From the IMG/VR virus record IMGVR_UViG_2718218136_000001: a stretch of DNA of 64,000 nt. One strand, written 5' to 3'. Source of the DNA: a virus (lineage: Duplodnaviria; Heunggongvirae; Uroviricota; Caudoviricetes). A program made the translations under genes and the position numbers. The notes below the pieces were generated by a model. It searched no databases, was not told the DNA's origin, and was given only the letters and a program-made list of their open reading frames with translations. Of this stretch, positions 25 through 56,762 are shown in pieces; position 1 is the first letter of the stretch, and each line of letters opens with the position of its first letter.

Positions 25-39
25 TATTTATGGTGACAT

Positions 40-3743: not shown

Positions 3744-3782
3744 TATCAAAACGCCCTGGCTGTAGAGCGTCGCGGCTATGAG

Positions 3783-4053
3783 TGTTAGCGCCGGGCGGTC
3801 ATAACGGTAAATTTGCGAACGTCACGGTCAACGAGACGACCGAAATTACCATAACCGCGCTCCAGTAATAATTTTTTAATTTCCGGCCAGTATGGACCAT
3901 AGCTGCGGTACAGGCGGGGATTTTTCAGTAATCGCCCGCGTAGCCCTGACAGAAGAAATCAACGTATTCGTCTTCTGTCTTTCCTAACAACGCTGTACGG
4001 AGTACCGCCTCAAGATATGTTTTATTCGGTTTTATTGTATCAGATAGTGTGGC
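3783..4053 (-). pseudogene. small ORF (~90 aa) interrupted by one frameshift (MATLSDTIKPNKTYLEAVLRTALLGKTEDEYVDFFCQGYAG / RLLKNPRLYRSYGPYWPEIKKLLLERGYGNFGRLVDRDVRKFTVMTARR)
   Basis: Hand translation of minus strand in two frames; ATG at 4053. Confidence 0.3.
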
Positions 4054-4089
4054 CATATTATGCGACGCCCGGCGAACCGGGCGCTCCTG

Positions 4090-13509: not shown

Positions 13510-13639
13510 TCAAAGTTGGCGCACGCAACTTGCCTGTTACCAAGAAATTAAGGAGGTTCCGCAAGCGGCTAACGTCCAGGCACCGCGTGAGACAAGCATC
13601 ATCACGTTTAATAATTCAATCAATCCGTTTAATTGACAC

Positions 13640-13665
13640 CCTCCACGCCCTGACGGGCGTGGAGG
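13640..13665. terminator. GC-rich hairpin cctccacgccc-tgac-gggcgtggagg between convergent genes
   Basis: Read directly; no clear U-tract. Confidence 0.3.
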
Positions 13666-13668
13666 ATG

Positions 13669-14034
13669 TCACGCTGCCTCTTTAATGTTGGCGGCTATCC
13701 ATGCCGCCGTGTGCTGTTTAACCTGGTCCAGGTCGATGTATGTGCCAACATATTGACTCAAATCCTGCAAGGTACCGATAAATGCATCGGTGCTCTGATC
13801 GACGAATTTATCAGCCAGGAAATCAGCAACCAGTTTTGGCACACCATCATGTTCCGAAGGTTGTTTTTCCTCGCCACTACCGCCGCCGGACGCGCCGTAC
13901 CCCATCTGTTGCATGATCTGGTCAATTTCATCGCTGATATCCAGCAACTCCATGCCACTCGCGGTAGCAGCTTTGGACATCAGAGAATCCAACTTGTCGC
14001 TGAGGTCCATTAACTCAATAGCTGATAGTGTCAT
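13669..14034 (-). CDS. hypothetical acidic protein (121 aa), DdrA-like position
   Basis: ORF track; position downstream of DarA-like gene. Confidence 0.35.
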   Translation of the reverse strand: MTLSAIELMDLSDKLDSLMSKAATASGMELLDISDEIDQIMQQMGYGASGGGSGEEKQPSEHDGVPKLVADFLADKFVDQSTDAFIGTLQDLSQYVGTYIDLDQVKQHTAAWIAANIKEAA

Positions 14035-17785: not shown

Positions 17786-18346
17786 ATGCTAATAGGCTAT
17801 GTACGCGTATCAACAAATGAACAAAACACTGCTTTACAACGAAACGCTCTTGAAAGCGCAGGATGTGAGCTAATTTTTGAGGACAAGGCGAGCGGCAAAA
17901 AGGCTGAGCGCCCTGGGTTAAAAAAGGTACTCCGTATGCTTTCCAGAGGTGATACCCTGGTCGTATGGAAGTTAGATCGTCTTGGGCGCAGCATGCGTCA
18001 CTTAGTTGTGCTGGTGGAAGAGCTGCGTGACAGAGGCATTAACTTCCGGAGTCTCACTGACTCCATCGACACCAGTACACCAATGGGGCGCTTTTTCTTT
18101 CACGTAATGGGGGCGCTGGCAGAAATGGAACGTGAACTTATTGTTGAACGTACACGCGCTGGACTTGATGCAGCTCGCGCAGAAGGTCGAATAGGTGGGC
18201 GTCGGCCTAAATACCAGAAAGAAACATGGCAGCAAATGCGGCGATTGCTGGAGAAGGGCATCCCCCGTAAGCAGGTTGCAATCATCTATGATGTGGCTGT
18301 TTCCACTCTTTATAAGAAGTTTCCGGCGTCATCATTTCAATCCTAA
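17786..18346 (+). CDS. cin: serine DNA invertase, Cin/Gin/Pin/Hin family (186 aa)
   Basis: N-terminus MLIGYVRVSTNEQNTALQRNAL, catalytic Ser in VRVST, TLVVWKLDRLGRSMRHL, C-terminal HTH; adjacent to invertible segment. Confidence 0.9.
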   Translation: MLIGYVRVSTNEQNTALQRNALESAGCELIFEDKASGKKAERPGLKKVLRMLSRGDTLVVWKLDRLGRSMRHLVVLVEELRDRGINFRSLTDSIDTSTPMGRFFFHVMGALAEMERELIVERTRAGLDAARAEGRIGGRRPKYQKETWQQMRRLLEKGIPRKQVAIIYDVAVSTLYKKFPASSFQS

Positions 18347-18363
18347 ACCTTGGTTTAAGAGAA
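18338..18363. promoter_or_regulatory. left inversion crossover site (cix/hix-like 12-2-12: caatcctaaACC TT GGTttaagagaa)
   Basis: Matches hix/gix-type architecture; mirrored by site at 22634-22659. Confidence 0.55.
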
Positions 18364-18946
18364 CTCGGTACCAGCGGTGAAAAGATCCCCCTGTTGAGCA
18401 CGGCTAACACATGGAGTGCACGCCAGACTTTCAACGGCGGGATCACCGGGGCGCTGACAGGGAACGCCGATACCGCAACAAAATTGAAAACAGCCAGAAA
18501 CATTAATGGCGTCAGGTTCGATGGTTCTGGTGACATTAATATCAATACTCTGGTATCGCGCGGTCGCGTAACGGCCCTGGAGGCGAATGCACAGGGAACA
18601 TCCGGGATTCAGCTGTATGAGGCATACAACAATGGCTACCCTTCCCCCTATGGCAATGTGCTTCACCTTAAAGGTGCCACCGCTGCTGGCGAAGGTGAGT
18701 TATTCATTGGCTGGAGTGGCACGAGCGGTACCCATGCGCCCGTACATATCCGTTCGCGGCGGGATACTGATTCTGCCAACTGGTCTGAATGGGCGCAGGT
18801 CTATACGTCAAAAGATTCAATTCCCGGCGTCAATGCCAAAGGGGATCAGGATACCTCTGGTAATGCGGCTACAGCGACCAAGTTGCAGACAGCATGTACT
18901 ATCAACGGTGTCTCGTTTGATGGTTCTAAAAATATTGAGCTAACGG
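18350..18946. repeat. left inverted repeat (~597 bp) of invertible segment
   Basis: Identical ~190-aa tail-fibre translation in + ORF 18394.. and - ORF 21089..; boundaries checked by reverse complement at both ends. Confidence 0.9.
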
Positions 18947-19995
18947 CGGAAGATTTAAATCTACAGGAAACGGTAAACAAGGCTGATAACGCGGTTCAAA
19001 AGACAGGCGATACCTTGTCCGGTGGACTTACTTTTGAAAACGACTCAATCCTTGCCTGGATTCGGAATACTGACTGGGCGAAGATTGGTTTTAAAAATGA
19101 TGCCGACAGCGATACTGATTCATACATGTGGTTTGAAACAGGCGACAACGGCAATGAATATTTCAAATGGAGAAGTCGCCAGAGCACCACAACAAAAGAC
19201 CTGATGAATCTTAAATGGGATGCTTTGTCTGTCCTTGTTAAAGCCCTTTTCAGCAGTGAAGTAAAAATATCGACAGTCAATGCACTAAGGATATTTAATT
19301 CATCTTTTGGTGCTATTTTTCGTCGTTCTGAAGAATGCCTGCATATCATCCCTACACGAGAGAATGAGGGGGAAAATGGTGATATAGGGCCACTACGTCC
19401 CTTTACACTTAATCTCAGAACTGGCCGTATAACTATGGGGCATGGTCTGGATGTTACAGGAGATATAACAACTAACGCCTGGGTGTATGCAAACAGGTTT
19501 GCTATTAACAGCAGTAATGGTATGTGGATTCAGATGCGCGATAACAACGCTATCTTTGGGAAAAATATAGTTAACACTGATAGCGCCCAGGCATTGCTAC
19601 GTCAGGACCATGCTGATCGCAAATTTATGATTGGTGGTCTGGGGAATAAGCAATTTGGCATCTACATGATTAATAATTCAAGGACAGCCAATGGTACCGA
19701 TGGTCAGGCGTACATGGATAATAACGGGAACTGGCTTTGCGGCTCGCAAGTTATTCCCGGCAACTATGGCAATTTTGACTCCAGATATGTGAAAGATGTT
19801 CGACTTGGTTCACAGCAATATTATGGAGTGAACAACTGGCAAACATGGAATTTCCAGTGCCCTTCAGGTCATGTATTGTCTGGTATTAATGTTCAGGATA
19901 CAGGGTCCAACTCTGCCGATAATATAGCAGGCGTTTATTACAGACCCGTTCAAAAGTATATAAATGGCACCTGGTATAATGTAGCGAGCGTTTAA
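18394..19995 (+). CDS. alternative tail-fibre C-terminal cassette (Sv'-like), currently not joined to the constant N-terminal part
   Basis: Shares IR-encoded segment with S then diverges after ...GSKNIELT; frame open from 18352. Confidence 0.6.
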
Positions 19996-19996
19996 T

Positions 19997-20524
19997 ATGA
20001 TGCACTTAAAGAACATACAAGCGGGTAATGCTAAAACACTGGAGCAGTATGAGTTAACAAAGAAGCACGGAGTCATCTGGCTTTACTCTGAGGACGAAAA
20101 AAACTGGTATGAGGAAGTGAAAAACTTTCAGCCAGACACCATAAAGATTGTTTACGATGAAAATAATATTATTGTCGCCATCACCAAAGATGCCTCCACG
20201 CTTAACCCTGAAGGTTTTAGCGTCGTTGAGGTTCCCGACATAACAGCCAACCGCCGCGCTGATGATTCAGGAAAGTGGATGTTTAAGGATGGAGCTGTAG
20301 TTAAACGGATTTATACGGCAGACGAACAGCAACAACAAGCCGAATCACAAAAGGCCGCATTGCTTTCCGAAGCTGAATCAGTCATCCAGCCGCTGGAACG
20401 CGCTGTCAGGCTGAATATGGCAACAGACGAGGAACGCACACGACTGGAAGCATGGGAACGCTACAGTGTTCTGGTCAGCCGTGTGGATACGGCAAATCCT
20501 GAATGGCCACAAAAGCCTGAATAA
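19997..20524 (+). CDS. tail-fibre assembly protein (U'-like, 175 aa)
   Basis: Paralog of 20553..21086 ([11 protein letters not shown].. vs MMHLRNITAGN..); immediately follows Sv'. Confidence 0.6.
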
Positions 20525-20530
20525 AAATTA

Positions 20531-20549
20531 AGGCCCGCTATCGGGCCTT
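20531..20549. terminator. bidirectional hairpin aggcccg-cta-tcgggcct between convergent assembly genes
   Basis: Read directly. Confidence 0.45.
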
Positions 20550-20552
20550 GTC

Positions 20553-21086
20553 TCATTCAGGTTGTTCGGGAAATGTTACTGGTAGGCTGGAGGTGTCTGT
20601 GGATTCGACTTTCTGCGCAAAGAGCATCCACTCGGTTAATTTCTGCTTATTCTCGGCGGAAATGATACCCAGCCGTAGCTGTGAGTCCCATAGCTGGGTT
20701 TTATCCCTGACGAGCTGTAGCAGACTTTGCTTTTCATTTTCCGCTTGTTGCCTCTGCTCTTCCTCGGTATAAGTTCGCTTTACCACTACGCCATCTTTGA
20801 ACATCCATTTACCAGAAATATCAGCCCGGCGATTTGCTGTAATATCAGGTAATTCAACGACGCTTGCGCCTTCTGGATTAATTGCTGAAACATCCTTTTC
20901 AATACAAATAATAACGCCGTTGTGGTCATAGGCCATTTTCAACGTATCATACTGGAAATTCTTTTGTTCCTCATACCAGTTTTTTCCATCCTCTGTATAA
21001 AGCCATTTGATGTTAAATTGTTTCGTTAGCTGGTATTGCTCTTTTGTTTTAGGGTTGCCAGCTGTAATATTTCTTAAGTGCATCAT
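20553..21086 (-). CDS. tail-fibre assembly protein (U-like, 177 aa)
   Basis: Immediately downstream of expressed tail-fibre gene. Confidence 0.65.
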   Translation of the reverse strand: MMHLRNITAGNPKTKEQYQLTKQFNIKWLYTEDGKNWYEEQKNFQYDTLKMAYDHNGVIICIEKDVSAINPEGASVVELPDITANRRADISGKWMFKDGVVVKRTYTEEEQRQQAENEKQSLLQLVRDKTQLWDSQLRLGIISAENKQKLTEWMLFAQKVESTDTSSLPVTFPEQPE

Positions 21087-21088
21087 AA

Positions 21089-24007
21089 TTAAATACTCCC
21101 CGCGTTATACCACGTCCCATTAATGCAATACTGAATTGGCCTTGCCTGAGTTGTATCAATTAATTCATCACGGTTTCCGTTAACTGAACCAGTAACGACA
21201 TAACCTGACCTGTCAGACCAGCCAGGACCATTCCATGTCTGAACAGATGACAGACCGCCAAGGCGAATACCTGTAATAAACCTTGAGTTACATTCTGCCT
21301 GCGTATATGCACCAACATCTCCCGCAGAGGGTTTGCGTGTTGTGGTGTAAAACTCTGACCAGTTAGCTTCAAAGCCATAACCATCACGCGCTGAACGATA
21401 AAAGATACCGCCATTTCTGTAATTCACGCGGAACTGTACAGCAGGGCAACTCCCCGCATTCATATTAAAGTGGAGGATTAATGTCGATGCGCCACTGATA
21501 TCTGCATCATAAACGCCGCTATTCCAGTTCCAGCCAACAGCTTTATCATTTGCGACCCTGCGTCCTGTTTGCCCTAAAGCAAATGCAGGCTGCTGGTTTT
21601 TCGTGTTGTAGTCTCGTCGCCAGCCAGGAGCGTAAGCATCACCATGATTAATATAAGTGAATTGAGCGTTAGTGATTCCGCCACCGCTGGACGTGCTCGG
21701 CGTAGTAACGCGTATGGTCATGGCACCTTTATTACCCATAACCTCAATAACGCAACCTGCAAGATGAATAGTTCCACAGCCAGTATCGGTTATAATTTTA
21801 TTATTGCCGTACGACCATGAACATTTGCACATCCAGTATGGGTGATTGAATGCCCCTTGAGAATCCAGCCATTCAATCAATTGTGCCGTTGTCCAGTTCC
21901 CTGCACCTGTACTAATAGAACTGTGAAAAGCGCGACATGCACCAATATTTTTAGTGAAGGTATCTTTTCCAGGAATATCCGCGCCGTTCTGATTTTTCTG
22001 CAATGACCCAGCGGCTAATTCTACTGTTCGCTCAAGATTTAAATTTTCAACCGTTAGCTCAATATTTTTAGAACCATCAAACGAGACACCGTTGATAGTA
22101 CATGCTGTCTGCAACTTGGTCGCTGTAGCCGCATTACCAGAGGTATCCTGATCCCCTTTGGCATTGACGCCGGGAATTGAATCTTTTGACGTATAGACCT
22201 GCGCCCATTCAGACCAGTTGGCAGAATCAGTATCCCGCCGCGAACGGATATGTACGGGCGCATGGGTACCGCTCGTGCCACTCCAGCCAATGAATAACTC
22301 ACCTTCGCCAGCAGCGGTGGCACCTTTAAGGTGAAGCACATTGCCATAGGGGGAAGGGTAGCCATTGTTGTATGCCTCATACAGCTGAATCCCGGATGTT
22401 CCCTGTGCATTCGCCTCCAGGGCCGTTACGCGACCGCGCGATACCAGAGTATTGATATTAATGTCACCAGAACCATCGAACCTGACGCCATTAATGTTTC
22501 TGGCTGTTTTCAATTTTGTTGCGGTATCGGCGTTCCCTGTCAGCGCCCCGGTGATCCCGCCGTTGAAAGTCTGGCGTGCACTCCATGTGTTAGCCGTGCT
22601 CAACAGGGGGATCTTTTCACCGCTGGTACCGAGTTCTCTTAAACCAAGGTATTGGATAACAGCAAGAACGCTTGTTTTGGCCAGAATATCGCGACCAACT
22701 GACGTTAAGTCAGTCTGAGAAACAGTGTCTGTACCGGTAAAGTACGGCAATTTATTTGCGCCTGTCGCAAGACCAGCAAGCGCGGTTAAAGTTGCATCAA
22801 GTGGCTGTTTCCCTGCCAGCGCATTTGTCATTGTTGTCGCAAAGTTCGGGTCATTGCCCAGTGCTGCTGCAAGCTCATTCAGGGTATCAAGAGCTTCAGG
22901 TGATGAGCCGACCAATGCAGAGATAGCAGCCCGTACGTAAGCAGTCGTAGCGATCTGCGTATTGTTTGTGCCCTGTGCAGCCGTAGGCGCAGTAGGGACA
23001 CCCGTTAATGCAGGGCTTGCCAAAGGCGCTTTGAGAGCCAAGGCATTGTTGATAGTTGTGCTGTAATTCGGGTCGTTATTGATCGCAGCCGCTATTTCTT
23101 TCAGCGTATCCAGTGTGCCAGGCGCACCGTTGATAAGTGCAGTTATAGCTGCCTTAACAAAGGCTGTATTTGCGATCTGCGTGCTGTTTGTACCTTGCGC
23201 TGCCGTCGGCGCGGTTGGCGTTCCTGTCAGACTCGGGCTTTCTATTGGCGCTTTGGTATCAGCCAGATCTTTTATAGACTTAACAGCTTTAGGGGTAGCC
23301 GCCATTGTTTCGCTGTCGCTGTTAGTTGCGCTACTGAGCTGAACTAATCCCTTTTGCGTTGTGCTTGCATCCTGCGCCGTATACTTGCTTTTCGCCAGAT
23401 CGTAGGCTTTTTTAACTGCCAGCGAACTTGCAGCAACATCACTTCTGGTACTGGTTACAGAGTCTGAAATATCAATGCCGATCGTGCGGTTGATACGCTC
23501 GGATGTATCAATCATCTCCTGGGTAATGGCAGATACACCAGCAGGGATATTCACCGTACAAACAAGCAGCTCCCCATCTCCTAACTGATATGAATCGGTA
23601 TAGGTTCTGGCAACAAATTCAGCCGCATGAATATGTGACGCGGTATTCACCTGATAGGTATCTTCTCCAAGGAGGTATCTTCCCTTCAGCACAATTGCAT
23701 ATTTCTTGCCTGCACTAAGTGCAAGAGAAATATCCTTACGTTGCTGAATAGTTACCTGGTAGAATTCACCAATATCCACCGACGCCGCGCCTGCGGTTTT
23801 ATCACCATCCACTGAGGTGATTAACAGGTTCATCCCACCGCCAGGCTTAGGTAAGAAACCGGCATAAAATCCCGGGTCAACAATCCCCCTGAATTTTCGG
23901 TTTAGCGCGGCTGACAGATATGGTTCGTGGTATTGCACATCAGCCACCAGAGCCAACGACTCGGGTGATGGGTAAGTAACTGATGTAACAACTGTAACGT
24001 CATTCAT
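21089..24007 (-). CDS. tail fibre protein (S-like); constant N-terminal part outside, variable C-terminal part inside the invertible segment; likely start MNDVTVV at 24007
   Basis: 1001-aa ORF; repeated collagen-like and fibre motifs; spans right crossover site. Confidence 0.8.
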   Translation of the reverse strand: MNDVTVVTSVTYPSPESLALVADVQYHEPYLSAALNRKFRGIVDPGFYAGFLPKPGGGMNLLITSVDGDKTAGAASVDIGEFYQVTIQQRKDISLALSAGKKYAIVLKGRYLLGEDTYQVNTASHIHAAEFVARTYTDSYQLGDGELLVCTVNIPAGVSAITQEMIDTSERINRTIGIDISDSVTSTRSDVAASSLAVKKAYDLAKSKYTAQDASTTQKGLVQLSSATNSDSETMAATPKAVKSIKDLADTKAPIESPSLTGTPTAPTAAQGTNSTQIANTAFVKAAITALINGAPGTLDTLKEIAAAINNDPNYSTTINNALALKAPLASPALTGVPTAPTAAQGTNNTQIATTAYVRAAISALVGSSPEALDTLNELAAALGNDPNFATTMTNALAGKQPLDATLTALAGLATGANKLPYFTGTDTVSQTDLTSVGRDILAKTSVLAVIQYLGLRELGTSGEKIPLLSTANTWSARQTFNGGITGALTGNADTATKLKTARNINGVRFDGSGDININTLVSRGRVTALEANAQGTSGIQLYEAYNNGYPSPYGNVLHLKGATAAGEGELFIGWSGTSGTHAPVHIRSRRDTDSANWSEWAQVYTSKDSIPGVNAKGDQDTSGNAATATKLQTACTINGVSFDGSKNIELTVENLNLERTVELAAGSLQKNQNGADIPGKDTFTKNIGACRAFHSSISTGAGNWTTAQLIEWLDSQGAFNHPYWMCKCSWSYGNNKIITDTGCGTIHLAGCVIEVMGNKGAMTIRVTTPSTSSGGGITNAQFTYINHGDAYAPGWRRDYNTKNQQPAFALGQTGRRVANDKAVGWNWNSGVYDADISGASTLILHFNMNAGSCPAVQFRVNYRNGGIFYRSARDGYGFEANWSEFYTTTRKPSAGDVGAYTQAECNSRFITGIRLGGLSSVQTWNGPGWSDRSGYVVTGSVNGNRDELIDTTQARPIQYCINGTWYNAGSI
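22051..22647. repeat. right inverted repeat (~597 bp) of invertible segment
   Basis: Reverse complement of 18350-18946. Confidence 0.9.
22634..22659. promoter_or_regulatory. right inversion crossover site (ttctcttaaACC AA GGTattggataa)
   Basis: Mirror of left site; lies inside S coding sequence. Confidence 0.55.
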
Positions 24008-35846: not shown

Positions 35847-35915
35847 CGTTTTCTAAGTGCAAAGAATCACCATTTCGAGCTGGTGATTGAAGGTTGATGC
35901 AAATTTGGAGAAAAA

Positions 35916-36716
35916 ATGCAACAAACATTCAATGCGGATATGAATATATCAAACCTTCATCAAAATGTCGATCCTTCAACCACCCTGCCTGTTATTTGTG
36001 GTGTTGAAATTACGACCGACCGCGCTGGCCGTTATAACCTTAATGCTCTACACAGAGCGAGCGGACTCGGTGCCCATAAAGCGCCAGCTCAATGGCTAAG
36101 AACGCTGTCAGCCAAACAGCTCATCGAAGAGCTTGAAAAAGAAACTATGCAGAATTGCATAGTTTCGTTCGAAGGCCGTGGCGGCGGCACTTTTGCCCAT
36201 GAATTGCTCGCAGTGGAGTACGCTGGTTGGATTTCTCCCGCGTTTCGGCTGAAGGTAAACCAGACATTTATCGACTATCGAGCTGGAAGATTACAACCTG
36301 CTATTCCGAAGAGCCTCCCAGAAGCTCTCCGTTTGGCTGCTGACCTGGCAGAGCAAAAGCAACGGCTGGAGCAAAAAATGCTGATGGATGCACCTAAAGT
36401 CGAATTCGCCGAACGCGTTGCTACCGCCAGCGGGGTTCTAATCGGCAACTATGCCAAAGTGCTCGGCCTGGGCCAAAACTATCTCTTCACCTGGTTGCGT
36501 GATAACGGAATTCTGATCGCAACCGGTGAACGCAGAAACGTCCCCAAACAAGAATACATATCCCGTGGGTATTTCACCCTTAAAGAAACCGTGATCGATA
36601 CAAGCAATGGAAGCAGGATTTCTTTCACGACTCGTATAACCGGCAAAGGTCAGCAGTGGCTGATGAAGCGATTGCTTGATGCTGGTGTGCTGGTACCTGT
36701 CGCGGCAACGCGCTAA
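35916..36716 (+). CDS. kilA: KilA (KilA-N domain + KilA-C domain, 266 aa)
   Basis: KilA-N-like N-terminus (GRYNLNALHRASG...WISPAFRL); C-terminus paralogous to Ant. Confidence 0.6.
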   Translation: MQQTFNADMNISNLHQNVDPSTTLPVICGVEITTDRAGRYNLNALHRASGLGAHKAPAQWLRTLSAKQLIEELEKETMQNCIVSFEGRGGGTFAHELLAVEYAGWISPAFRLKVNQTFIDYRAGRLQPAIPKSLPEALRLAADLAEQKQRLEQKMLMDAPKVEFAERVATASGVLIGNYAKVLGLGQNYLFTWLRDNGILIATGERRNVPKQEYISRGYFTLKETVIDTSNGSRISFTTRITGKGQQWLMKRLLDAGVLVPVAATR

Positions 36717-36745
36717 CAGACGTAGTAAGAACCACCAGCATTGTA

Positions 36746-37591
36746 ATGCTGGCTAAAGTCACTTTCCTGAGCTGTATAACGATGAGCGATTTTACTTTTT
36801 CTGGCTATGAATTGGCCTGCTTTGTAACACACTCCGGTCTATCCCGTAGCGCCGGGCATATCCTGTCGCAATGTGCAAATCTCGCGGCAACAACCAGTGA
36901 ATACTTCATTCACAAGCCTCACCGCCTGATCGCGGCAGAAACTGGTTATAGCCAATCAACCGTCGTTCGTGCATTCCGTGAAGCTGTAAACAAAGGAATT
37001 CTGTCTGTAGAGATTGTTATCGGCGATCACCGTGAACGTCGCGCTAACCTGTACCGGTTTACACCATCCTTTTTGGCCTTCGCACAACAAGCCAAAAATG
37101 CGCTGATTGAAAGCAAATTAAAGATCTCTTCAGCGGCAACCAAGGTTAAAGCTGTTCTCGCTAAGACATTGGCTTTATTTAATTTTTTATCCACACCCCC
37201 ATGTCAAAATGATACCCCCTCCCCCTGTCAGGATGACGTGGCAATAAAGAATAAGAAGTCACAAGTTAAAAAAACAAAAAGATCAGTTTCCGGCGGTGCC
37301 GGAACGACCAGACTCAAAAAATTGACTTCATGGATCGCTGAGGCAAAAGCAAAGGCTGACAATCTGCGGTTATCCAAAAAACGCGCTCAAAAACATGAGT
37401 TCAAGCAGAAAGTAGAGGCGGCAGCGCGGAAATATGCTTACCTGAAGGACAAGCGTTCTCCTGATATTGGCGGGATATCAAACTTCGATAATCTGCCGCA
37501 TTGCATGACGGTAAACGAAGCTCTTAATGCGGTTTTAGCCAAAAATAAAGATAACGAACAATGGGGTATACCGGCAGGATTCAGAGGGTGA
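36746..37591 (+). CDS. repL: lytic replication protein RepL-like (281 aa)
   Basis: Position after kilA under the same operator; size. Confidence 0.5.
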   Translation: MLAKVTFLSCITMSDFTFSGYELACFVTHSGLSRSAGHILSQCANLAATTSEYFIHKPHRLIAAETGYSQSTVVRAFREAVNKGILSVEIVIGDHRERRANLYRFTPSFLAFAQQAKNALIESKLKISSAATKVKAVLAKTLALFNFLSTPPCQNDTPSPCQDDVAIKNKKSQVKKTKRSVSGGAGTTRLKKLTSWIAEAKAKADNLRLSKKRAQKHEFKQKVEAAARKYAYLKDKRSPDIGGISNFDNLPHCMTVNEALNAVLAKNKDNEQWGIPAGFRG

Positions 37592-37641
37592 TAGATTGCT
37601 CTAATCTGGAGTCACCTGGCGTTTTCAGTTTGAGGTCGGAG

Positions 37642-37887
37642 ATGCAATCTGATTTTTTACAGTTAGCGATCGCTTTTGCAGGATATGTTTGTATTGGCTT
37701 CTGTGTATACATGATCAGCCGAAAAATGCTTGTCGATATCGACCGCAAAGAACAAGCAGAGGAGATCTTAGTATGGATTTTCTTTGGCGCGGTCTGGCCA
37801 TTAGGGATCATGTTTGCTGCAACATTTCTTCTGATGTGGATATTCACCCTTCCAGGTGATTTCTATAGAAAAAAAGCCAGACATTGA
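37642..37887 (+). CDS. small membrane protein (~81 aa, two hydrophobic helices)
   Basis: Internal ATG of ORF 37561..37887. Confidence 0.3.
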   Translation: MQSDFLQLAIAFAGYVCIGFCVYMISRKMLVDIDRKEQAEEILVWIFFGAVWPLGIMFAATFLLMWIFTLPGDFYRKKARH

Positions 37888-38010
37888 TACAATCGTTGCG
37901 GGTGCTTGAGGCTATCTGCTTCAGGCATTACCCGAAAAGCAGATAGAAGAAAGCCCCAGATAACATTACGCGTCCTGCAAGACGCTTAACATTAATCTGA
38001 GGCCATATCT

Positions 38011-38217
38011 ATGCTTAGCATACGTAGATTAGCCTCTTACCGACCAAAAGGTCAAGGAGAAGCAGGCTATGAAGCAGCAAAAAGCGATGTTAATCGCTCT
38101 GATCGTCATCTGTTTAACCGTCATTGTGACGGCACTGGTAACGAGGAAAGACCTCTGCGAGGTACGAATCCGAACCGGCCAGACGGAGGTCACTGTCTTC
38201 ACAGCCTACGAATCTGA
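38011..38217 (+). CDS. Mok-like overlapping reading frame (68 aa)
   Basis: Overlaps hok in another frame and ends 7 nt before hok stop. Confidence 0.4.
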   Translation: MLSIRRLASYRPKGQGEAGYEAAKSDVNRSDRHLFNRHCDGTGNEERPLRGTNPNRPDGGHCLHSLRI

Positions 38218-38224
38218 AAGGTAA
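38069..38224 (+). CDS. hok: Hok/Gef-family type I toxin (51 aa: MKQQKAMLIALIVICLTVIVTALVTRKDLCEVRIRTGQTEVTVFTAYESER)
   Basis: Hand translation; conserved LTRK.LCE.R...TEV..F.AYES Hok signature; below 60-aa ORF-track cutoff. Confidence 0.8.
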   Translation: MKQQKAMLIALIVICLTVIVTALVTRKDLCEVRIRTGQTEVTVFTAYESER

Positions 38225-38298
38225 GAGACCTGGCGGGGAGAGATCCCTGCCACTCTTCGTGTGTCAGGTATCCTCAATGCACCCTTTCCTCTCCAAAT

Positions 38299-38322
38299 AA
38301 AAAAGCTCCCGAAGGAGCTTTA
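38299..38322. terminator. bidirectional intrinsic terminator aaaaagctcc-cgaa-ggagcttt
   Basis: Hairpin flanked by A-run and T-run. Confidence 0.5.
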
Positions 38323-38340
38323 AAATACAAGGGATGACTC

Positions 38341-38850
38341 TTAAGCCCACTCAATCCAGTTGTAGACGATACGAAGTGACGGGCGCACAGCGGCAGTCAC
38401 ATCTTCGGTACTAAAGTCGATTGCATCACTGTAGATTTTGCAGTCCAACATTTCAATTGTTGTAGCAGCTTTTGTCACAGCGTTAACCCCGGAAGATTTG
38501 GATTCAGGGGTCGCAGCCATCGTGATATCAACATAGTCCTTCGCCGCAATGCGATCTTTAATGAACTGAAGAATATCGCCTTCGATAGTCTCCACGCACT
38601 GGACCTGGATTTCCCCAGAGTTTCGAATTGGACCGTGCTGGTTGAACTTCACACCATTCGGACCATAGTCCTCCACATCCTCGCGGGTCATTTCAGGAAT
38701 TTGCGACGTGCGAACCAGTACGCTGATATCTTCATGGCCTGCAAAAGTGAGCTGGAATTCAGAAGATACCAGTCGTTCGCCTTTGGCCGCGTTGGCAGTA
38801 TAGCGGCCCTTAATAAATTTACGGTTTCCCTTAGTGTTATTGTGCCCCAT
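38341..38850 (-). CDS. hypothetical phage structural protein (169 aa)
   Basis: ORF track. Confidence 0.35.
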   Translation of the reverse strand: MGHNNTKGNRKFIKGRYTANAAKGERLVSSEFQLTFAGHEDISVLVRTSQIPEMTREDVEDYGPNGVKFNQHGPIRNSGEIQVQCVETIEGDILQFIKDRIAAKDYVDITMAATPESKSSGVNAVTKAATTIEMLDCKIYSDAIDFSTEDVTAAVRPSLRIVYNWIEWA

Positions 38851-38861
38851 ATAAAATCCTT

Positions 38862-39443
38862 TTACTGGAACGCCCGAACAATATCGGAGCTGTTATATAT
38901 CGAAGAACCGGTCAACTGGAGGTTGACGGTGTTTTTCAGGAAATGCCCATTGCTGTCCCTGGGCGCATCGAGATCGAAACTTATGTCCTGGATAGCGACA
39001 TCAATGATGTTGATCCGGCGACCAATGTTTAGCGTCACACGCTCCGGGATTCGACCACCAATACTGGCATCTTTAAGTTCCGGGCTAATCATCGCTGACA
39101 ATGCGGCGATAGCTCCTGAAACCTCCGTGAATGGGTCAAACAAAGCGATGAAAGTTACTGGCAGCGTGAAAGTCGGCGGTGTTCCCCCCTCCCAAACCAT
39201 TAAGCTGTTCCAACGGGCCACCGACGTTGTTTCAGTACCAACCTGCGCAAAACCACTGAAAGCACCAGCAACAGACCCCATGGACATACCGGTAAACGGC
39301 GCTTCCCAATTCTGGGCCATGTTCATTGCTGCCCCCTGGCTGATATATCCGGTAACCTGGTACTGAGAGTTCGTTAAAGTAACTTTCAGAAATGGCGATA
39401 CACCGTCAGCCTGGCTGTAAACCCCATAAGGAATAGGTGCCAT
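38862..39443 (-). CDS. hypothetical phage structural protein (193 aa)
   Basis: ORF track. Confidence 0.35.
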   Translation of the reverse strand: MAPIPYGVYSQADGVSPFLKVTLTNSQYQVTGYISQGAAMNMAQNWEAPFTGMSMGSVAGAFSGFAQVGTETTSVARWNSLMVWEGGTPPTFTLPVTFIALFDPFTEVSGAIAALSAMISPELKDASIGGRIPERVTLNIGRRINIIDVAIQDISFDLDAPRDSNGHFLKNTVNLQLTGSSIYNSSDIVRAFQ

Positions 39444-39478
39444 TCAAGTTAAAGGCCGGAGTTCTCCGGCCTCCTCCT

Positions 39479-40294
39479 TTAGCCAAGGCGCTTACGGCGC
39501 AGTTTCATTGACTTTTTGCGGGCAAGTTTTGCCGCGCCGGTCTGGGCTTTTCGACGCGCTTTTTTCAGCGCCGATTTTTGAGCCGCAGTCAGACGTTTTT
39601 TACGCAGGCGTTTACGGATGAGTTTGATCTCACCGTTACGAACAACCTTCTTAAATGCTTCAGTCAGCATTTCATCAGAAGTGCCAGCAACAACAAACGC
39701 CGCTTCCAGTTCGTCGCGGTCGTCGCTATCTAAACCAGCGATAGAGGCACCAACATCAGCAGCTGCGTCGTCGTCTTCATCGTCAGCCAGTGCTTCGATC
39801 AGGTCATCATCTACACCGCATGCTGCGAGGAAGTCAGCAACATTTGCCCATGCTTCGTTATAGGCATCGTCCTGTTCTTCTGTAACTTCGGAGTCTTCGT
39901 CATCAGAGATACCAGCGATAGCCTGAACGAAACCATCAAGGGAGTCGAAAGTCAGATCACCGCTATCAGCCCAGGCGAAAACGGCGTCGGCCGCATCACT
40001 CAACGCATTCTGCATAGCACTTCGATTTGCAGCTTCCAGAATCATCTGGTGCGCCTGTTCGACGGTCCATTCTTTACCGTCTTTCCCTTCCAGGATTTGC
40101 TCAGGAGCCGTGGCAGATGGAACGTTATCGTTAGTCTGTGCCGCCGGTTTCGGATTATTATTAATAACCGGATCTGTTGTCGGTTCGGCGCTTGCTCGGG
40201 CAGACTCCATCAACTGCACAGGATCAGAGTTCAAAGCGAAACGAGACAGTCCATTCCCCAAAAATGCCCCGGATTGAAAAAAGTTTTTGCTCAT
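39479..40294 (-). CDS. acidic protein with highly basic C-terminal tail (271 aa)
   Basis: D/E-rich body; C-terminal KLIRKRLRKKRL...KLRRKRLG. Confidence 0.4.
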   Translation of the reverse strand: MSKNFFQSGAFLGNGLSRFALNSDPVQLMESARASAEPTTDPVINNNPKPAAQTNDNVPSATAPEQILEGKDGKEWTVEQAHQMILEAANRSAMQNALSDAADAVFAWADSGDLTFDSLDGFVQAIAGISDDEDSEVTEEQDDAYNEAWANVADFLAACGVDDDLIEALADDEDDDAAADVGASIAGLDSDDRDELEAAFVVAGTSDEMLTEAFKKVVRNGEIKLIRKRLRKKRLTAAQKSALKKARRKAQTGAAKLARKKSMKLRRKRLG

Positions 40295-40303
40295 TGTATT
40301 TCC

Positions 40304-41893
40304 TTACTTAATAAGCAGCGGTACGCCCTGGATGCGACGGGCTACGCCAGTCGGGCAGCAGGCCCAGACTACTTCCCATTTATCGAATTCCGCCTGCGTA
40401 ACTTTCAGCACATACGGTTCTGTACCGTCAGCATCAGGATCACGAGGAGCCACCAGAGCGCCGGAGGCGACAAAGCGATCTAAAAGTTTGGTCATCCCTT
40501 TAGTCAGGCCAGCCGCAGTAATACCGTCCGGGCTATGCTTCATCTGTCGGGCTAACTGGACAAAGAAACGGCTGATTGCATTCATCAGGGATGGGACGTG
40601 CTGGAAGTGCAGATAGTTATCCTGCGTGCAGCAAGTTAAAGCATCATCGATGATCATCTGGCCCGAAGTACCTACAGATACTTTATTGAGTCGGCCCTTG
40701 ACCATAGCTTCTTCGTCCGGGGTGTCTTCAGGATACAGCGGCTGAAGTGATGCACGAGCTATGACGGCACGTTCTTCACCAGCCGGTGAGTAATGCCAAC
40801 CGCCGACATCGGAGTTTTTCCTGACGCCACGAGCTTTCGCCGCATACGCCGCGCCAGACAGACCGAAGACCACGCGGGATTGGGTCCATTTGTCTTTGCA
40901 GGAGAACGGGAAATGATAGACAGCACAGCTTACATAATCGGTACCAAGTAAACCGGTATCTTCAACAGCAGAGATCGCTTCCGTGTACGTCAATGTCGGT
41001 TTGACATCAAAGAAGCCATCAATCAGGCGATCAGAACAGATATTACCTAACGCAGTGATCGCCGCATTGTCATAGCACCCCAGGCCGAGAACAGCGGTGT
41101 ACATGTACGGCGCATTGTTCAGCACTTTCACCGCACGCAGGTACGCAGCGGTTGAGATTTTCGACTGATCGCCGTTGGTACCGCCAGTGAACGCCAACGA
41201 TTTTTTGTTTGTTACTTTCGCTGTCGAAATCAGCTCTTCATTAACAACCGCGCGCAGATATTTAGAACGGGCTTCCAGAGCCGTAGGCAGATAACACAAG
41301 CGGCCCATGTCATCTTTCGCTTCTTCCGCCAAAGACACAGTGTGTGTCTCCAGGGTCGTTACCACGCCGAGCGAAGTCGTCTGGGTCAGTTTTAAGAGGA
41401 AGCGTTCATTACCCGCGCTGTCCGCTGTTGCCGTTTCGATGGTTAACTCACGGGTAGGTGAAATACACGGATCACCATCATCAACGTAGATAGCAAAGGC
41501 TTCGCCACTATCAAGTTCAATTTCAGAACCGTATGGCAACGCACTGTAAGCCGGTTCGCCTGATTCATCGAACATAATAATCGGGAACTTCGCATCATCC
41601 GGAACAGCGCGAACAACATAACCAGACGTTTGCTGAATAGCTTCGTATACATGGCGAATTGGTTCGAACTGTGAGCCGGAAGACGGCTTCAGCGGTTCGC
41701 CGAGAACATCTTCGTAATTGGACTCAGTAACCGCAAGAACAGTAAACGGCTTGCCACGCGCAAATACGCCAATACCAGCCCACAAGCTGCTATTTAATGC
41801 AACACCGGTAGATAACGTCGCATCGGCATTGATCGGGCTAACAGCGACGCCGGATGCATTACCTAATGACTGTTGAATTGAATATTGAGACAT
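40304..41893 (-). CDS. major structural protein, candidate tail sheath (529 aa)
   Basis: Size and position next to capsid-like gene; no diagnostic motif. Confidence 0.35.
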   Translation of the reverse strand: MSQYSIQQSLGNASGVAVSPINADATLSTGVALNSSLWAGIGVFARGKPFTVLAVTESNYEDVLGEPLKPSSGSQFEPIRHVYEAIQQTSGYVVRAVPDDAKFPIIMFDESGEPAYSALPYGSEIELDSGEAFAIYVDDGDPCISPTRELTIETATADSAGNERFLLKLTQTTSLGVVTTLETHTVSLAEEAKDDMGRLCYLPTALEARSKYLRAVVNEELISTAKVTNKKSLAFTGGTNGDQSKISTAAYLRAVKVLNNAPYMYTAVLGLGCYDNAAITALGNICSDRLIDGFFDVKPTLTYTEAISAVEDTGLLGTDYVSCAVYHFPFSCKDKWTQSRVVFGLSGAAYAAKARGVRKNSDVGGWHYSPAGEERAVIARASLQPLYPEDTPDEEAMVKGRLNKVSVGTSGQMIIDDALTCCTQDNYLHFQHVPSLMNAISRFFVQLARQMKHSPDGITAAGLTKGMTKLLDRFVASGALVAPRDPDADGTEPYVLKVTQAEFDKWEVVWACCPTGVARRIQGVPLLIK

Positions 41894-51136: not shown

Positions 51137-54100
51137 AAGAGCTGTGCTATGGATCTGTTTGCAGTGGAATTGAAGCCGCGAGTATTGCCTGGGAACCGTT
51201 GGGTATGCGTCCGGTTTGGTTTGCTGAAATCGAGCCTTTTCCATCGGCCGTTCTTGCGCTCCGCTGGCCCCATGTCGCCAACCTTGGCGACATGACAAAA
51301 CTTGCCAAAAAAGTCTTGGCTGGGGAAATCGAATCCCCTGACGTGCTCGTCGGGGGAACACCATGTTTTACCGCGGGGCATATGGTTCTTTGTAAAAATG
51401 GTTATAAACCAATAGAAGATGTTTGCCCTGGCGATTACGTAGTCAGTCATCTCGGGCGGTTACAACAAGTAAAAAGAGTTGGTTCAAAAATAGCTAATAC
51501 GGGGTTACTTAATGCCGTTGGGCAGCCTTTAGGTATAAGAACAACCAATGACCATCCCTTCCTGGCTGTTCGGTGGAAAGCCCAAAACACCCGGAAAAAT
51601 GGCACATATTTTAAGAGAGAGTTGTTGTCTGAACCGGAATGGCGAGCAGCATGTGATATGCCGGGATATCAATGGTGCGCTCTAACTAATTTCAATATTG
51701 CATCTCCAGATATTTGTTCTCGGTTCTTGTCTGAAGAACAGGCTATGTATCTTGCGGGCGCTTATGTTGGCGATGGATATATTAGGAGATGGAGAGGTAA
51801 ATCTAAGAAGGCGGTTGTTTTTGGCATAAATTGCCAGAAATTGAGAAAGTTTCATTGCCGCATACCAGAAAACATATTTTCCGTGGCAAGCGAAATCCGA
51901 GGGAGCATCAAAGTAACCTTGAATGATACGTGTTATGCCAATTGGCTTAATGAACATTTTGGCGAGTTAAGCCATGCTAAGCGTATCCCTGCATGGGTGA
52001 TGTCGCATCCATTGCGTCATGTGTTTTTACAAGGCTATCTTGATACTGATGGGACACCAAGTGGTAAAGCGGGATTTAGAATTAATAGTGTTAGTCCTGC
52101 GCTTGCTTGGGGCGTTGCGGGGTTGTCACAGACTTGTGGTTATGTTTCTTCGGTCAGCTTTATTGAAGTTGAGCCCAAAAAAGTGATCGAGGATCGCGTG
52201 GTAAATCAACGGAATTATTATCAGGTAACAATCTGCCCGCAGAAATTGTCACGTAAATCAAGATTGGCTCATGGAATGCTTTTACGAACAGTCAAAGAGT
52301 TTAAATCGGTAGGCCTAGATACTGTATACAACATAGAAGTCGAAGGTGATCATTCCTATATCCTCAATGGTGCGGTGGTCCATAACTGTCAGGCATTCAG
52401 TATCGCGGGCTTACGTGGTGGGCTTGATGATGAACGCGGCGCGCTAACTTTGAAGTATGTGGAGCTTGCAAATGCAATTGACGACAAACGGTCTGAGTCC
52501 TTCCTCAAACCGACAGTTATCGTCTGGGAAAATGTCCCAGGAGTCCTGTCATCGGCAGATAACGCCTTCGGATGTTTCCTTGCCGGATTGGCTGGAGAAG
52601 ATGCGCCATTTGAACCAGGTGATCGACCTGAATCAGGAAAAAGTAACGCGTTCTGGCGGTGGGATGGCAAAACCGGTTGCCATGCTCCAAAGTGGCCGCA
52701 GTGTGGTTGTATTTATGGACCGCAGCGAAAGGTGGCCTGGAGAATCCTTGATGCCCAATACTTCGGAGTGGCACAACGACGCCGACGCGTGTTTGTTGTC
52801 GCAAGTGCTCGAACAGACCTCGATCCCGCAACGGTACTTTTTGAGTTCGAAGGCGTGCGTCGGAATATTGCGCCGAGCCGAAAAAAGAAGGAAATCGCTT
52901 CCGCCATTATTGCAAATGGCGCTGCAATCAGTGGCGAAAGCCTAAATCCATGCCTACACGCTGACATGCCACCCGGTATGAAATCGACGAAAGCCGTAAA
53001 CGCTTTCAGGATGGCAGCATTTGGGGAATATATTGACGATGAAACCGCATCGACAGTAAAGGCAAGAGATTTTAAAGATGCCACTGACCTTGCCGTTTTT
53101 AGCAGCACAGGAGCAGGTTTTTGGTCAGAAGGGCATGGTACATTGCGGGCACGTGAGCAAGAAAGCCATGAGCATCTTGTTACATTGGTTTTTCCTGAGC
53201 GTATGAGCGGTACACAACATGCTGAAACTAAGAATACTTCACCATCTCTAATGGCTAAAAATCCAACAGCTGTTTGCTATGAAGTAAGAAACGCAGAAGT
53301 AGCTGTCCGCCGTCTTACCCCTGTCGAATGTGAAAGGCTGCAAGGTTTTCCTGATGGGCATACGTTGATCCCGACGGAAAAGCGTAAAAAAGTTAATTCA
53401 GATGAACTGGCATATCTTCGCAATCACTATCCAGATTTAAGCGAAGAAGAGGCCGCGATGCTTGCAGCTGACGGACCGCGTTACAAAGCGATCGGCAATA
53501 GTATGGCAATACCAGTAATGCGCTGGATTGGCGATCGGATTACTAAGGCCGTATGTCGGCAGAAAGAAGGAAGTGAAACAAAAGAGCGAAAAGTTAAACC
53601 AGCGGCAGAATTCGAACGGTCCATATTCAAATGGGCTGGTGGAAAATTTGGTGTTCTGGAACAAATCTTTCGCTATTTGCCAGAAGGGAAGCGCCTGATC
53701 GAACCTTTTGTCGGTGGCGGAGCTGTCTTCACGAATGCCGGATACCAGGAAAATCTGCTAAATGATGTGAATGCTGACCTGATTAACTTTTACAAGACTC
53801 TGCAACGCGAGGCGCATTCACTTATCACACTGGCGCATCGTTTCTTCCAGGACTACAACACACAGGAAGGATACCTGGCAGTACGGAATGCGTTTAACAA
53901 ACAAGTCTATGATGATTTACATCGCGCAGCGGCGTTTTTGTTCCTGAACCGACATTGTTTTAACGGATTGACGCGTTACAACCAGGCCGGTGAGTTCAAT
54001 GTCGGTTATGGGAAGTATAAAACTCCGTATTTCCCATTACAGGAGATGGAAGCCTTCCTCGGTGCGGAAGGGCGGTCTGAGTTTGTATGCGGTGATTTTG

Positions 54101-55092: not shown

Positions 55093-55168
55093 GATGGTGT
55101 AGCTCAGCGGTTAGAGCGGTTGACTGTTAATCAACGGGTCGATGGTTCAAATCCATCCACCATCGCCA
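55093..55168 (+). tRNA. tRNA-Asn (anticodon GUU), CCA encoded
   Basis: Cloverleaf folded by hand: 7-bp acceptor stem, anticodon loop CUGUUAA, T-loop GGTTCAAATCC. Confidence 0.85.
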
Positions 55169-55170
55169 AT

Positions 55171-55246
55171 GCTGGTTTAGCTCAGTTGGTAGAGCGCCTG
55201 CCTTGTAAGCAGGATGTCAGCGGTTCGAGTCCGTTAACCGGCACCA
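55171..55246 (+). tRNA. tRNA-Thr (anticodon UGU), CCA encoded
   Basis: Cloverleaf by hand: anticodon loop CUUGUAA, T-loop GGTTCGAGTCC. Confidence 0.85.
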
Positions 55247-55977
55247 GCACAACAGGTAAGGGTATTTTGCGACGTCGGAGATCGCCGAGCTTGGCAGAGG
55301 GTTCGAATCCCTACGAAGTGCCCTTACCGTTGTGATGAAGTGCAGCTCTTTGAAGCAACCAGAAGATAAGCATCTGGCTTCACAACATAAACCGCAGGAA
55401 CGACCAATAAACGGTAGTCCGTATGGAGAACACCCCGTTGAGGAAGAGGCCTGGCCGGAACCGTAACCGGCACTACAACGTTGAGAACACTGGCGTAACG
55501 GGGTCATATCCCAATCTACGAATAAATGTTGCGTTGCAGCGTGACAACCAGTGTTCTCAACATTGTGGTGAATGCACAGGCTGATGTGCCGCAACTACAG
55601 TAGTGCGCGCTTTGCGGGGCTTGCTATAACCCTGTGTCGGAGTTCAGCACCGATCATCACAGTTTGATTCTCTGGCATGAGCATAACGCTGAAATAAGTC
55701 CAGTCTGGTGCGGCCCGATCACCCGCCGTTAGCTCCACGAAACGGAGCACGTAACAGGTAAGAGCATTCTCCTGTAACGGGTTCATATCCCAATCTACAG
55801 GTCCACCAGGAATGCTCTTTCCGTTGCGGTGAATGCGGCTAAGCGCACGCGGAACAGTTAAAACAATCCTCCTTAATGGTTAAACATTCCGGCGTTAATT
55901 GTTAACTGGTTAACGTCACCGGGAGGCACTCGGCACCGCAATCTAATAAATATGTCACTTTTATTGAGGGATAACCA

Positions 55978-56412
55978 ATGTTCGGTAAATTGTTCGGCAA
56001 GAAAGTCGCTTCTGCAAAAGTAGAGCTGAAAAAAGTTGAGAATCGAGATCTGATGGAGGCCATCATCGGTGGCTGTTTGTTGGTATCTGCCGCTGATGGT
56101 GAAATCGAAAAAGAAGAAACAGCGAAACTTGATCAGCTTGTCCGCTCTAATCCGCGTCTTAGTCATTTTGGTAACGAAATTACTGCAACAATTACCCGCT
56201 TTACCGAGCAACTGGAAGCTGGCTTCCGTGTTGGTCGCATGAATATCCTTCGCGAAATTGAAGATATCAAAAACGATCCAAAAGAAGCGGAAGAAGTATT
56301 CGTTAACATGCTGACAATTGCAGAAGCGGACGGTGAAATCGAGCCAGCAGAACACAAAGTACTGGAAGAAGTAGGCCGTCGTTTAGGTCTTCGTGTGGAA
56401 GATTATCTGTAA
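55978..56412 (+). CDS. TerB-like tellurite-resistance-family protein (144 aa)
   Basis: Duplicated SAADGEIEKEE / AEADGEIEPAEH motifs typical of TerB fold. Confidence 0.6.
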   Translation: MFGKLFGKKVASAKVELKKVENRDLMEAIIGGCLLVSAADGEIEKEETAKLDQLVRSNPRLSHFGNEITATITRFTEQLEAGFRVGRMNILREIEDIKNDPKEAEEVFVNMLTIAEADGEIEPAEHKVLEEVGRRLGLRVEDYL

Positions 56413-56576
56413 TGGCAAGCAAGGCACGTATCGCAATCGCCATTGGTTTTCTCTTGCTGTCCGTGCTGGTGGATTTCACCAGCACAATCCTGTCAGTTTT
56501 ATCGGACGGGGCGTTGGTGGCAGTAGCTGTAACATTGGTATGGCCGATATTAAAAACAGCTTCTAAGGATCAGTGA
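56412..56576 (+). CDS. small membrane protein (54 aa), translationally coupled (TAATG)
   Basis: Hand translation MASKARIAIAIGFLLLSVLVDF...; below ORF-track cutoff. Confidence 0.4.
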   Translation: MASKARIAIAIGFLLLSVLVDFTSTILSVLSDGALVAVAVTLVWPILKTASKDQ

Positions 56577-56683
56577 TGGGCTTCTGGGATTTTGCTGACA
56601 AGCATCCAATTGTTCTCGTTGTCATTGCTGGCATAGTTGTAGGCGGTATTGCTGGCGTCATAGAAGCACTCAGGAAACAGTAA
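56576..56683 (+). CDS. small membrane protein (35 aa), translationally coupled (TGATG)
   Basis: Hand translation MGFWDFADKHPIVLVVIAGIVVGGIAGVIEALRKQ. Confidence 0.35.
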   Translation: MGFWDFADKHPIVLVVIAGIVVGGIAGVIEALRKQ

Positions 56684-56686
56684 TCC

Positions 56687-56762
56687 GGCCCTTTAGCTCA
56701 GTGGTTAGAGCTGGCGACTCATAATCGCACGGTCACCGGTTCAAGTCCGGTAGGGGCCACCA
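56687..56762 (+). tRNA. tRNA-Ile2-like (anticodon CAU), CCA encoded
   Basis: Close resemblance to enterobacterial ileX-type tRNA; anticodon loop CUCAUAA. Confidence 0.8.

Follow-up and report, generated by a model that had tools for sequence, protein, structure and literature searches.

The question raised by the hok-like gene in IMG/VR record IMGVR_UViG_2718218136_000001, a caudoviricete genome, is whether it belongs to a complete hok/mok/sok locus, and what such a locus would do for the P1-like (IncY) phage-plasmid that carries it. The whole stretch of DNA that was analysed, 64,000 nucleotides (nt) long, is referred to here as the window. A first-pass annotation, made from the letters of the window, had proposed a Hok/Mok-type type I toxin module between repL and the structural genes. 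This interpretation is supported by our analysis: at the sequence level all hallmarks of a hok/mok/sok locus are present and uninterrupted. In its sequence anatomy and in its homology, the locus is a hok/mok/sok locus. We conclude that it is very probably an intact type I toxin-antitoxin locus of the HokD/HokW subgroup, located between repL and bplB, that would work by the same mechanism as hok/sok of plasmid R1, with the killing of cured segregants as the most likely benefit to the element. The coordinates of the features are collected in Table 1.

The toxin gene, hok, has 51 codons and encodes the 51-amino-acid (aa) product MKQQKAMLIALIVICLTVIVTALVTRKDLCEVRIRTGQTEVTVFTAYESER. The gene is in the list of open reading frames (ORFs), and the Hok/Gef signature that had been read in its product is confirmed by a match to Pfam HOK_GEF (PF01848; E 2.4e-22, 78.7 bits compared with a cut-off of 22) that covers positions 1 to 42 of the 42-position profile, and by a match to PHROG 251, described as MokW-like host killing (E 4.9e-32). 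An identical protein, WP_001313475.1, is annotated as hokD in plasmids that are 100% or 99.4% identical to the window across the region. The proposed placement between repL and the structural genes is also correct, with a 281-aa ORF at 36746-37591 that corresponds to P1 RepL forming the left flank, and the tail-tube gene bplB, on the minus strand, forming the right flank.

The leader of the hok mRNA was located by the Rfam model RF01794 ('sok'), which matches 37900-38074 on the plus strand over model positions 1 to 157 of 157 (E 4e-27; 114.9 bits, where the gathering score is 59). This is the sole such hit in the window. The model follows the strand of the hok mRNA as far as the hok AUG, and the match therefore places the leader rather than the strand of the Sok gene. 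Model position 1 aligns with 37900, which is the predicted 5' end of the mRNA. The -10 element of the predicted hok promoter sits 7 nt before the conserved GGGTGC 5' end, and phage 933W has TAGAAT at the corresponding position. The module had originally been drawn from 37990; with a promoter at 37866-37893 and an mRNA 5' end near 37900, the locus instead occupies approximately 37866-38321 and begins about 125 nt further upstream.

Folding of 37900-38326 gave a minimum free energy (MFE) of -166.5 kcal/mol (z = -8.5 relative to dinucleotide shuffles). Two long-range interactions are found in the MFE structure, one between the tac element at the 5' end of the mRNA and the fbi element near its 3' end, and one between the ucb element and the dcb element, which spans the hok stop codon. 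The window locus was aligned with five other loci: hokW of 933W, a Rac-prophage hok locus and three chromosomal loci. All 12 tac-fbi pairs are retained in the five aligned loci whose 3' end is intact (an insertion sequence (IS) element cuts the sixth), and homology to other hok loci stops exactly at fbi. For an RNA truncated ahead of fbi, folding predicts that the 5' end rearranges into a local hairpin. In the Gerdes model of hok regulation, local refolding of the 5' end is required for activation via 3' processing. The pairing of 37900-37911 with 38272-38284 is modelled as the classical tac-fbi fold-back inhibition. Given how little the paired segments vary, the support that the alignment appears to lend to tac-fbi is mostly conservation, not covariation, and for ucb-dcb seven of the eight pairs are invariant across the six loci and hence uninformative on covariation.

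Base pairs in the alignment were counted on the MFE structure of the window, a structure that was derived from the window itself, in six closely related sequences. Standard pairs occupy 91.9% of the cells, and this share falls to 36-42% if the 3' partners are shifted by 1-3 columns. In 12 pairs both sides have changed; shuffles gave 5.2 ± 1.5 such pairs, and the shifted controls 0-4. The comparison supports the structure but does not prove it.

A longer frame overlapping hok had been described as a Mok arrangement, and this description is accurate: the mok frame has 68 codons, lies in the +1 frame relative to hok and stops 7 nt short of the hok stop codon. No family match was found for the mok product in Pfam or NCBIfam. 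The mok ATG is invariant across the six aligned loci, and the phase of mok relative to hok varies among them, with three arrangements. The 68-codon out-of-frame mok is found in the window and in the Rac locus; a 1-nt deletion produces an in-frame mok-hok fusion of 70 aa in 933W and in two of the chromosomal loci; and one locus has a 19-codon mok that overlaps hok through ATGA. These phase shifts, seen among loci that are 85-91% identical, are caused by small insertions and deletions in the hairpin that separates ucb from the Shine-Dalgarno sequence of hok. A start codon that is fixed while its reading frame varies fits a frame that would act through translational coupling, and not through its protein product.

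An antisense Sok-like RNA had been expected on the minus strand at 37990-38070. The sequence features of such an RNA are present on that strand, but the interval was misplaced, as it covers the promoter of sok and, of the RNA itself, no more than the first ~30 nt. The Sok unit has an unpaired tail at its 5' end, then a long hairpin and a U-rich GGGGCUUUCUU tail (-31.8 kcal/mol, z = -5.3). It spans the mok ATG (38011) and the GAGG Shine-Dalgarno sequence 8 nt 5' of this ATG, both of which fall inside the Sok-complementary segment 37949-38019. The -10 of the sok promoter coincides with the TAACCT that was mutated by Takada et al. to obtain a promoter-less sokW, as deduced from the primers YO-421 and YO-422 on the 933W alignment. 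Both the -10 and the -35 of the window copy are nearer to consensus than those of the functional sokW. A minus-strand hit of the Rfam 'sok' model at 37809-37957, with 21 bits, is far under the gathering score and was treated as chance.

At the 3' end, the first-pass annotation had reported a strong bidirectional terminator after hok. The hairpin exists (AAAGCTCC-CGAA-GGAGCTTT) and is strong on the minus strand, but it is weak on the plus strand: the terminator scan gave it a score for the minus strand alone, on which the stem is followed by six U, compared with UUU and then AAAA on the plus strand. Folding gave -13.9 kcal/mol for the minus strand and -11.0 kcal/mol for the plus strand. The same hairpin sequence is found just downstream of bplB in reference P1. 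Because the hairpin is P1 backbone and a proper U-tract follows it solely on the minus strand, its main role is to terminate the convergent bplB operon, and it is at best a weak end for the hok mRNA. A bidirectional terminator as part of the module was ruled out on the same grounds, the hairpin being P1 backbone sequence scored on the minus strand only.

A second, G+C-rich hairpin lies 3' of hok and is uninterrupted in the window. In relatives, this hairpin is a recurrent insertion site for IS186/IS421, with the insertion point at about 38247. Approximately 200 P1-like plasmids match the window only up to ~38247 and then resume elsewhere in the record, and in pMCR-1-P3 an IS421 is annotated directly after hokD. 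The same insertion is found at a chromosomal hok locus and at another on a 655-kb plasmid. The direct repeat reported for IS186B, GGATCTCTCC (PMC6906374), is the reverse complement of window 38237-38246. Insertion at this site parts hok from fbi; unlike many of its relatives, the window locus has no IS.

Table 1. Features of the hok/mok/sok locus and its surroundings in the window.
Feature	Position	Strand	Description
Cassette (small membrane ORF + hok/sok)	37606-38298		693 bp; P1 (NC_005856) matches by blastn up to 37605 and again from 38299
ORF with hydrophobic stretches	37642-37887	+	81 aa; makes up the cassette's left half; 108 aa in a longer form with its start at 37561
Predicted hok promoter	37866-37893	+	TAGAAA-16 nt-TACAAT, TG upstream of the -10; consensus scan
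Full-length hok mRNA (predicted)	37900-38321	+	begins at conserved GGGUGCUUGAGG; 3' end placed at the backbone hairpin or close to it
tac element	37900-37911	+	mRNA 5' end; 12 bp with 38272-38284 in the MFE fold
Sok antisense RNA	37949-38019 (38019->37949)	-	71 nt; coordinates transferred from the sokW misc_RNA of 933W by pairwise alignment
mok reading frame	38011-38217	+	68 codons; +1 frame relative to hok (ORF list)
sok promoter	38026-38055	-	-35 TTGACC (plus strand 38050-38055), 18-nt spacer, -10 TAATCT (plus strand 38026-38031); read from sequence
ucb element	38034-38041	+	CUCUUACC; pairs with 38220-38227 in MFE folds
hok toxin gene	38069-38224	+	51 codons
dcb element	38220-38227	+	GGUAAGAG; spans the hok stop codon; pairs with ucb in the MFE fold
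G+C-rich hairpin	38231-38252	+	3' of hok; MFE helix UGGCGGGGA/UCCCUGCCA
fbi element	38272-38284	+	CCUCAAUGCACCC; pairs with tac; conserved in 933W, Rac and two chromosomal loci
Terminator hairpin	38302-38321	both	P1 backbone; strong on minus, weak on plus
bplB, tail-tube/baseplate gene	38341-38850	-	right flank

We infer the transcription, processing, toxicity and maintenance phenotype of the window copy from R1 hok/sok (the Gerdes model) and from homology to hokW-sokW. A weak promoter would give a stable hok mRNA of ~420 nt, which would be kept closed by the tac-fbi and ucb-dcb pairings. Slow trimming of the 3' end would take off fbi, upon which the 5' end would refold and the mok ribosome-binding site would open. 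A stronger, convergent promoter would supply abundant but short-lived 71-nt Sok RNA, which would pair over the mok Shine-Dalgarno sequence and start codon, block translation of mok and of the coupled hok, and mark the duplex for RNase III. If the element were lost, or if transcription of sok stopped, Sok would decay first, Hok would be made and inserted into the inner membrane, and the cell would be killed or arrested.

For a plasmid prophage of one to two copies, the most likely benefit would be the killing of cured segregants, on top of phd-doc, and the killing of plasmid-free cells by the window locus is plausible. The near-identical plasmid NZ_CP080083.1 carries repA-parAB, phd-doc and hokD, plus an annotated SIR2-family gene. 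Since this close relative carries phd-doc as well, hok/sok would be a second, independent addiction module. The suggestion in the first-pass annotation that the module is separate from any protein-based addiction system on the element is consistent with the presence of both hokD and phd-doc in NZ_CP080083.1. A tblastn search of the window with Phd and Doc sequences found neither; by synteny with NZ_CP080083.1, phd-doc falls outside the 64-kb span, and its absence from the window is therefore uninformative about the element.

Several points weigh against this conclusion. The hok and sok promoters are consensus-level predictions for this copy, and that of sok was not reported by the consensus scanner. 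The plus-strand terminator is weak, which makes the actual 3' end of the hok mRNA uncertain. The covariation evidence is modest, because the structure was taken from the window sequence and only six loci were aligned. The Hok product scores under the curated cut-offs of NCBIfam Hok models, with 49.5 bits compared with 73 for NF007279 (Hok family subfamily) and 38.1 bits compared with 89 for NF007290 (HokA equivalog). These two models represent other Hok subgroups, and as their cut-offs are not reached, the RefSeq name HokD for the identical protein must stem from another rule. Most chromosomal hok loci are reportedly inactive. Finally, the closest homologue that has been tested, hokW-sokW, was reported to aid phage release, not maintenance (PMC8621323).

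The genomic setting of the locus bears on its possible roles. The element is identified as a P1-like phage-plasmid by a c4 antisense RNA (34367-34452) and P1-type tRNAs (55093-56762), and its gene order is collinear with that of the IncY plasmid NZ_CP080083.1, at ~90-99% identity. The hok/sok locus lies in a cassette that replaces 1,826 bp of reference P1, in which rlfA, rlfB and pmgF lie. This rlfA-rlfB-pmgF segment is one of eight variable regions in P1-like phage-plasmids (PMC9603915), and all three genes were scored as non-essential in P1 by a CRISPR interference (CRISPRi) screen (PMC10695390). In the right 400 bp of the cassette (37888-38284), lambdoid and Rac prophage hok loci are 87-91% identical to the window, and this homology has the promoter -10 and fbi as its exact limits. 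The small ORF in the left half matches phrog_3772, of unknown function (E 3e-54), and corresponds to the hypothetical protein WP_001369095.1 in NZ_CP080083.1; it had no match in Pfam (108-aa form) or NCBIfam (81-aa form). Among the sampled matches, this ORF is found beside hok only in P1-like elements, and chromosomal and lambdoid loci match the hok half alone. The left junction of the cassette (37596-37612) cuts the P1 C1 operator Orlf, where P1 has ATTGCTCTAATTATAAC and the window has ATTGCTCTAATCTGGAG, with only the first 11 bases kept.

The strongest alternative, which we consider possible although unlikely, is that the same locus has its main role as a lysis or release helper on prophage induction, and that the switch could be read-through from the C1-controlled kilA-repL operon, which runs in the direction of hok and against sok. 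The sole functional data for the subgroup come from the closest tested homologue, hokW-sokW of the Sakai prophage Sp5, which acts in this manner. HokW is toxic and is located in the inner membrane, sokW neutralises HokW, both RNAs are seen on Northern blots, the rescue is lost when the sokW promoter is mutated, and the system is partly dependent on RNase III and Hfq (PMC8621323). On induction of Sp5, sokW RNA vanishes and HokW appears before the endolysin, and deletion of hokW-sokW halves phage release, a yield effect of about two-fold (PMC8621323). In the window, the cassette is directly downstream of repL and co-oriented with it, only a weak 5-bp terminator-like hairpin (37844-37859) lies between repL and hok, and Orlf is cut by the left junction. 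However, a lysis-helper role is compatible with post-segregational killing, the data behind it come from Sp5, and the read-through mechanism is pure conjecture. Furthermore, Sp5 is integrated whereas the window element is a plasmid, and maintenance is the classical role for plasmids.

A more specific version of this idea is decidedly doubtful. Read-through from a derepressed kilA-repL operon would add hok RNA, collide with the convergent sok promoter and deplete Sok, which would convert a maintenance module into an induction-triggered device for membrane damage or lysis timing. If true, kilA-repL read-through would account for the disappearance of sokW RNA when Sp5 is induced, which so far lacks an explanation.

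It is improbable that the locus is mainly an abortive-infection defence, in which shut-off of host transcription by an invader would deplete Sok and free Hok. Variable segments of P1-like elements often hold defence genes, for example, the SIR2-family gene annotated in NZ_CP080083.1, but nothing in the window connects the locus with genes of this kind. When present on a high-copy plasmid, R1 hok/sok lowered the plating efficiency and plaque size of T4, as cited in PMC8621323, although the effect as described there was small and was seen at high copy number.

Least probable of all is an inert passenger that was acquired from a lambdoid or Rac-type prophage by recombination, is no longer regulated or expressed and has been kept via the recent spread of a plasmid lineage: related, mostly chromosomal copies are found in 4747 of 5426 complete E. 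coli genomes, many hok loci are disrupted by IS elements, and identity of at least 99% among plasmids reflects recent spread and not proven selection, but the promoter positions, tac, fbi, ucb, dcb, the mok ATG and the sok hairpin are all present and uninterrupted in the window, and the sok -10 and -35 are nearer to consensus than those of the functional sokW. Because every element is intact, the abortive-infection and inert-passenger roles are the less likely ones, and an intact type I locus that would kill cured segregants is the reading that we prefer.

Elsewhere in the window, several differences from NZ_CP080083.1 were observed. At 13632-13673 the window is without ~6.5 kb that is present in that record (34461-40968), a stretch that encodes a ddrB-like protein, two hypothetical proteins, a DUF2829 protein, SSB and a lysozyme. 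When the window was searched by tblastn with the proteins of this stretch, only ddrA was found, and the element may be without an endolysin, unless the gene lies beyond the window. No blastn match in NZ_CP080083.1 was found for window 18314-23260, which falls in the invertible tail-fibre (C-segment) region, or for 32800-34170 and 51367-52386. Window 1-7212 is ~90% identical to NZ_CP080083.1, compared with 96-99% elsewhere; its counterpart in that record comprises the SIR2-family gene and ref, together with the 3' ends of two further genes, for an N-6 DNA methylase and an integrase. Weak Rfam hits in the window to CRISPR-DR46 (25.9 bits), ceN48 and sbrA are far under their gathering scores and were treated as chance.

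A search of PLSDB with a 491-bp region as query indicates that the locus is widespread. This region matches 668 plasmids, 430 of them over at least 80% of the query and 359 at an identity of at least 99%. The matches are mostly non-mobilizable E. coli plasmids, and the top matches listed are ~90-100 kb in size. The repL of the window is found in 515 plasmids, a set counted separately from the hok set. The similarity of the hok and repL plasmid numbers suggests that P1-like plasmids in nature usually have the hok form, with laboratory P1 as the exception. The whole cassette is present in 235 of the complete E. coli genomes, and the relatives of the locus found in these genomes are mostly 80-95% identical to it. 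The phage record PP818812.1 (H8), deposited as an Actinobacillus pleuropneumoniae phage, contains an E. coli-type hok locus with 89% identity. This is unexpected for the stated host and may be due to contamination or misassignment.

The locus is already known, as hokD is annotated in hundreds of public plasmids and the mechanism of the family is textbook knowledge. The RefSeq label is 'hokD: type I toxin-antitoxin system toxin HokD', and some phage records use the name MokW. Public records annotate only the toxin ORF; mok, Sok and the RNA elements were mapped in this analysis. Full-text literature searches found no paper on the hok/mok/sok architecture, or on mok, Sok or the RNA elements of this copy, in P1-like elements. 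Beyond correct annotation the significance is small. Where laboratory P1 has its rlfA-rlfB-pmgF region, most natural P1-like phage-plasmids appear to hold a module for addiction or lysis help that is RNA-based and comes as a second one. This matters for how P1-like elements, which are often carriers of resistance genes, persist, and for the question of how hok/sok would benefit a phage.

Among known systems, hokW-sokW (with mokW) of the Stx2 phages 933W and Sakai prophage Sp5 is 87% identical to the window at the nucleotide level from the mRNA 5' end to fbi, homology to the 933W locus spans 37888-38284, and HokW of 933W is identical to the window Hok at 47 of 51 amino acids. The sok gene, its -10, tac, ucb, dcb and fbi have the same positions in both, and both loci are carried by a temperate phage. 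The 933W mok is in frame with hok, as a 70-aa fusion produced by a 1-nt deletion, whereas the window mok is out of frame as in R1. The 933W/Sp5 locus resides in an integrated lambdoid prophage and the window locus in a plasmid prophage, with unrelated flanks and terminator. The best nucleotide match outside P1-like elements, at 91%, is to Rac-type prophage hok/mok loci (e.g., MN652886). These have the same 68-codon out-of-frame mok and an identical ucb-proximal hairpin, but differ in genomic context and in the C-terminus of Hok (AYEPEE compared with AYESER in the window).

The protein identical to the window Hok is named HokD by PGAP, and the window Hok is ~96% identical to a chromosomal HokD (RelF) sequence. 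The K-12 hokD locus reportedly has no upstream regulatory region, whereas the window copy has a complete leader, mok and sok. The phd-doc module of P1 is an addiction module on the same kind of element and co-occurs with hok in NZ_CP080083.1; it is a type II system with a protein antitoxin, and it is unrelated to hok/sok in sequence and mechanism. The founding post-segregational killing system is hok/sok (parB) of plasmid R1, in which the Sok antisense RNA lies across the mok start region, as described by the Gerdes model. No nucleotide similarity between R1 hok/sok and the window was detectable by blastn. Amino acid identity between the R1 Hok sequence and the window Hok is ~42%, and the value for HokW relative to Hok is 44% (PMC8621323). 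Like the window locus, R1 hok/sok is plasmid-borne, and the two have tac/fbi, ucb/dcb and an overlapping mok in common.

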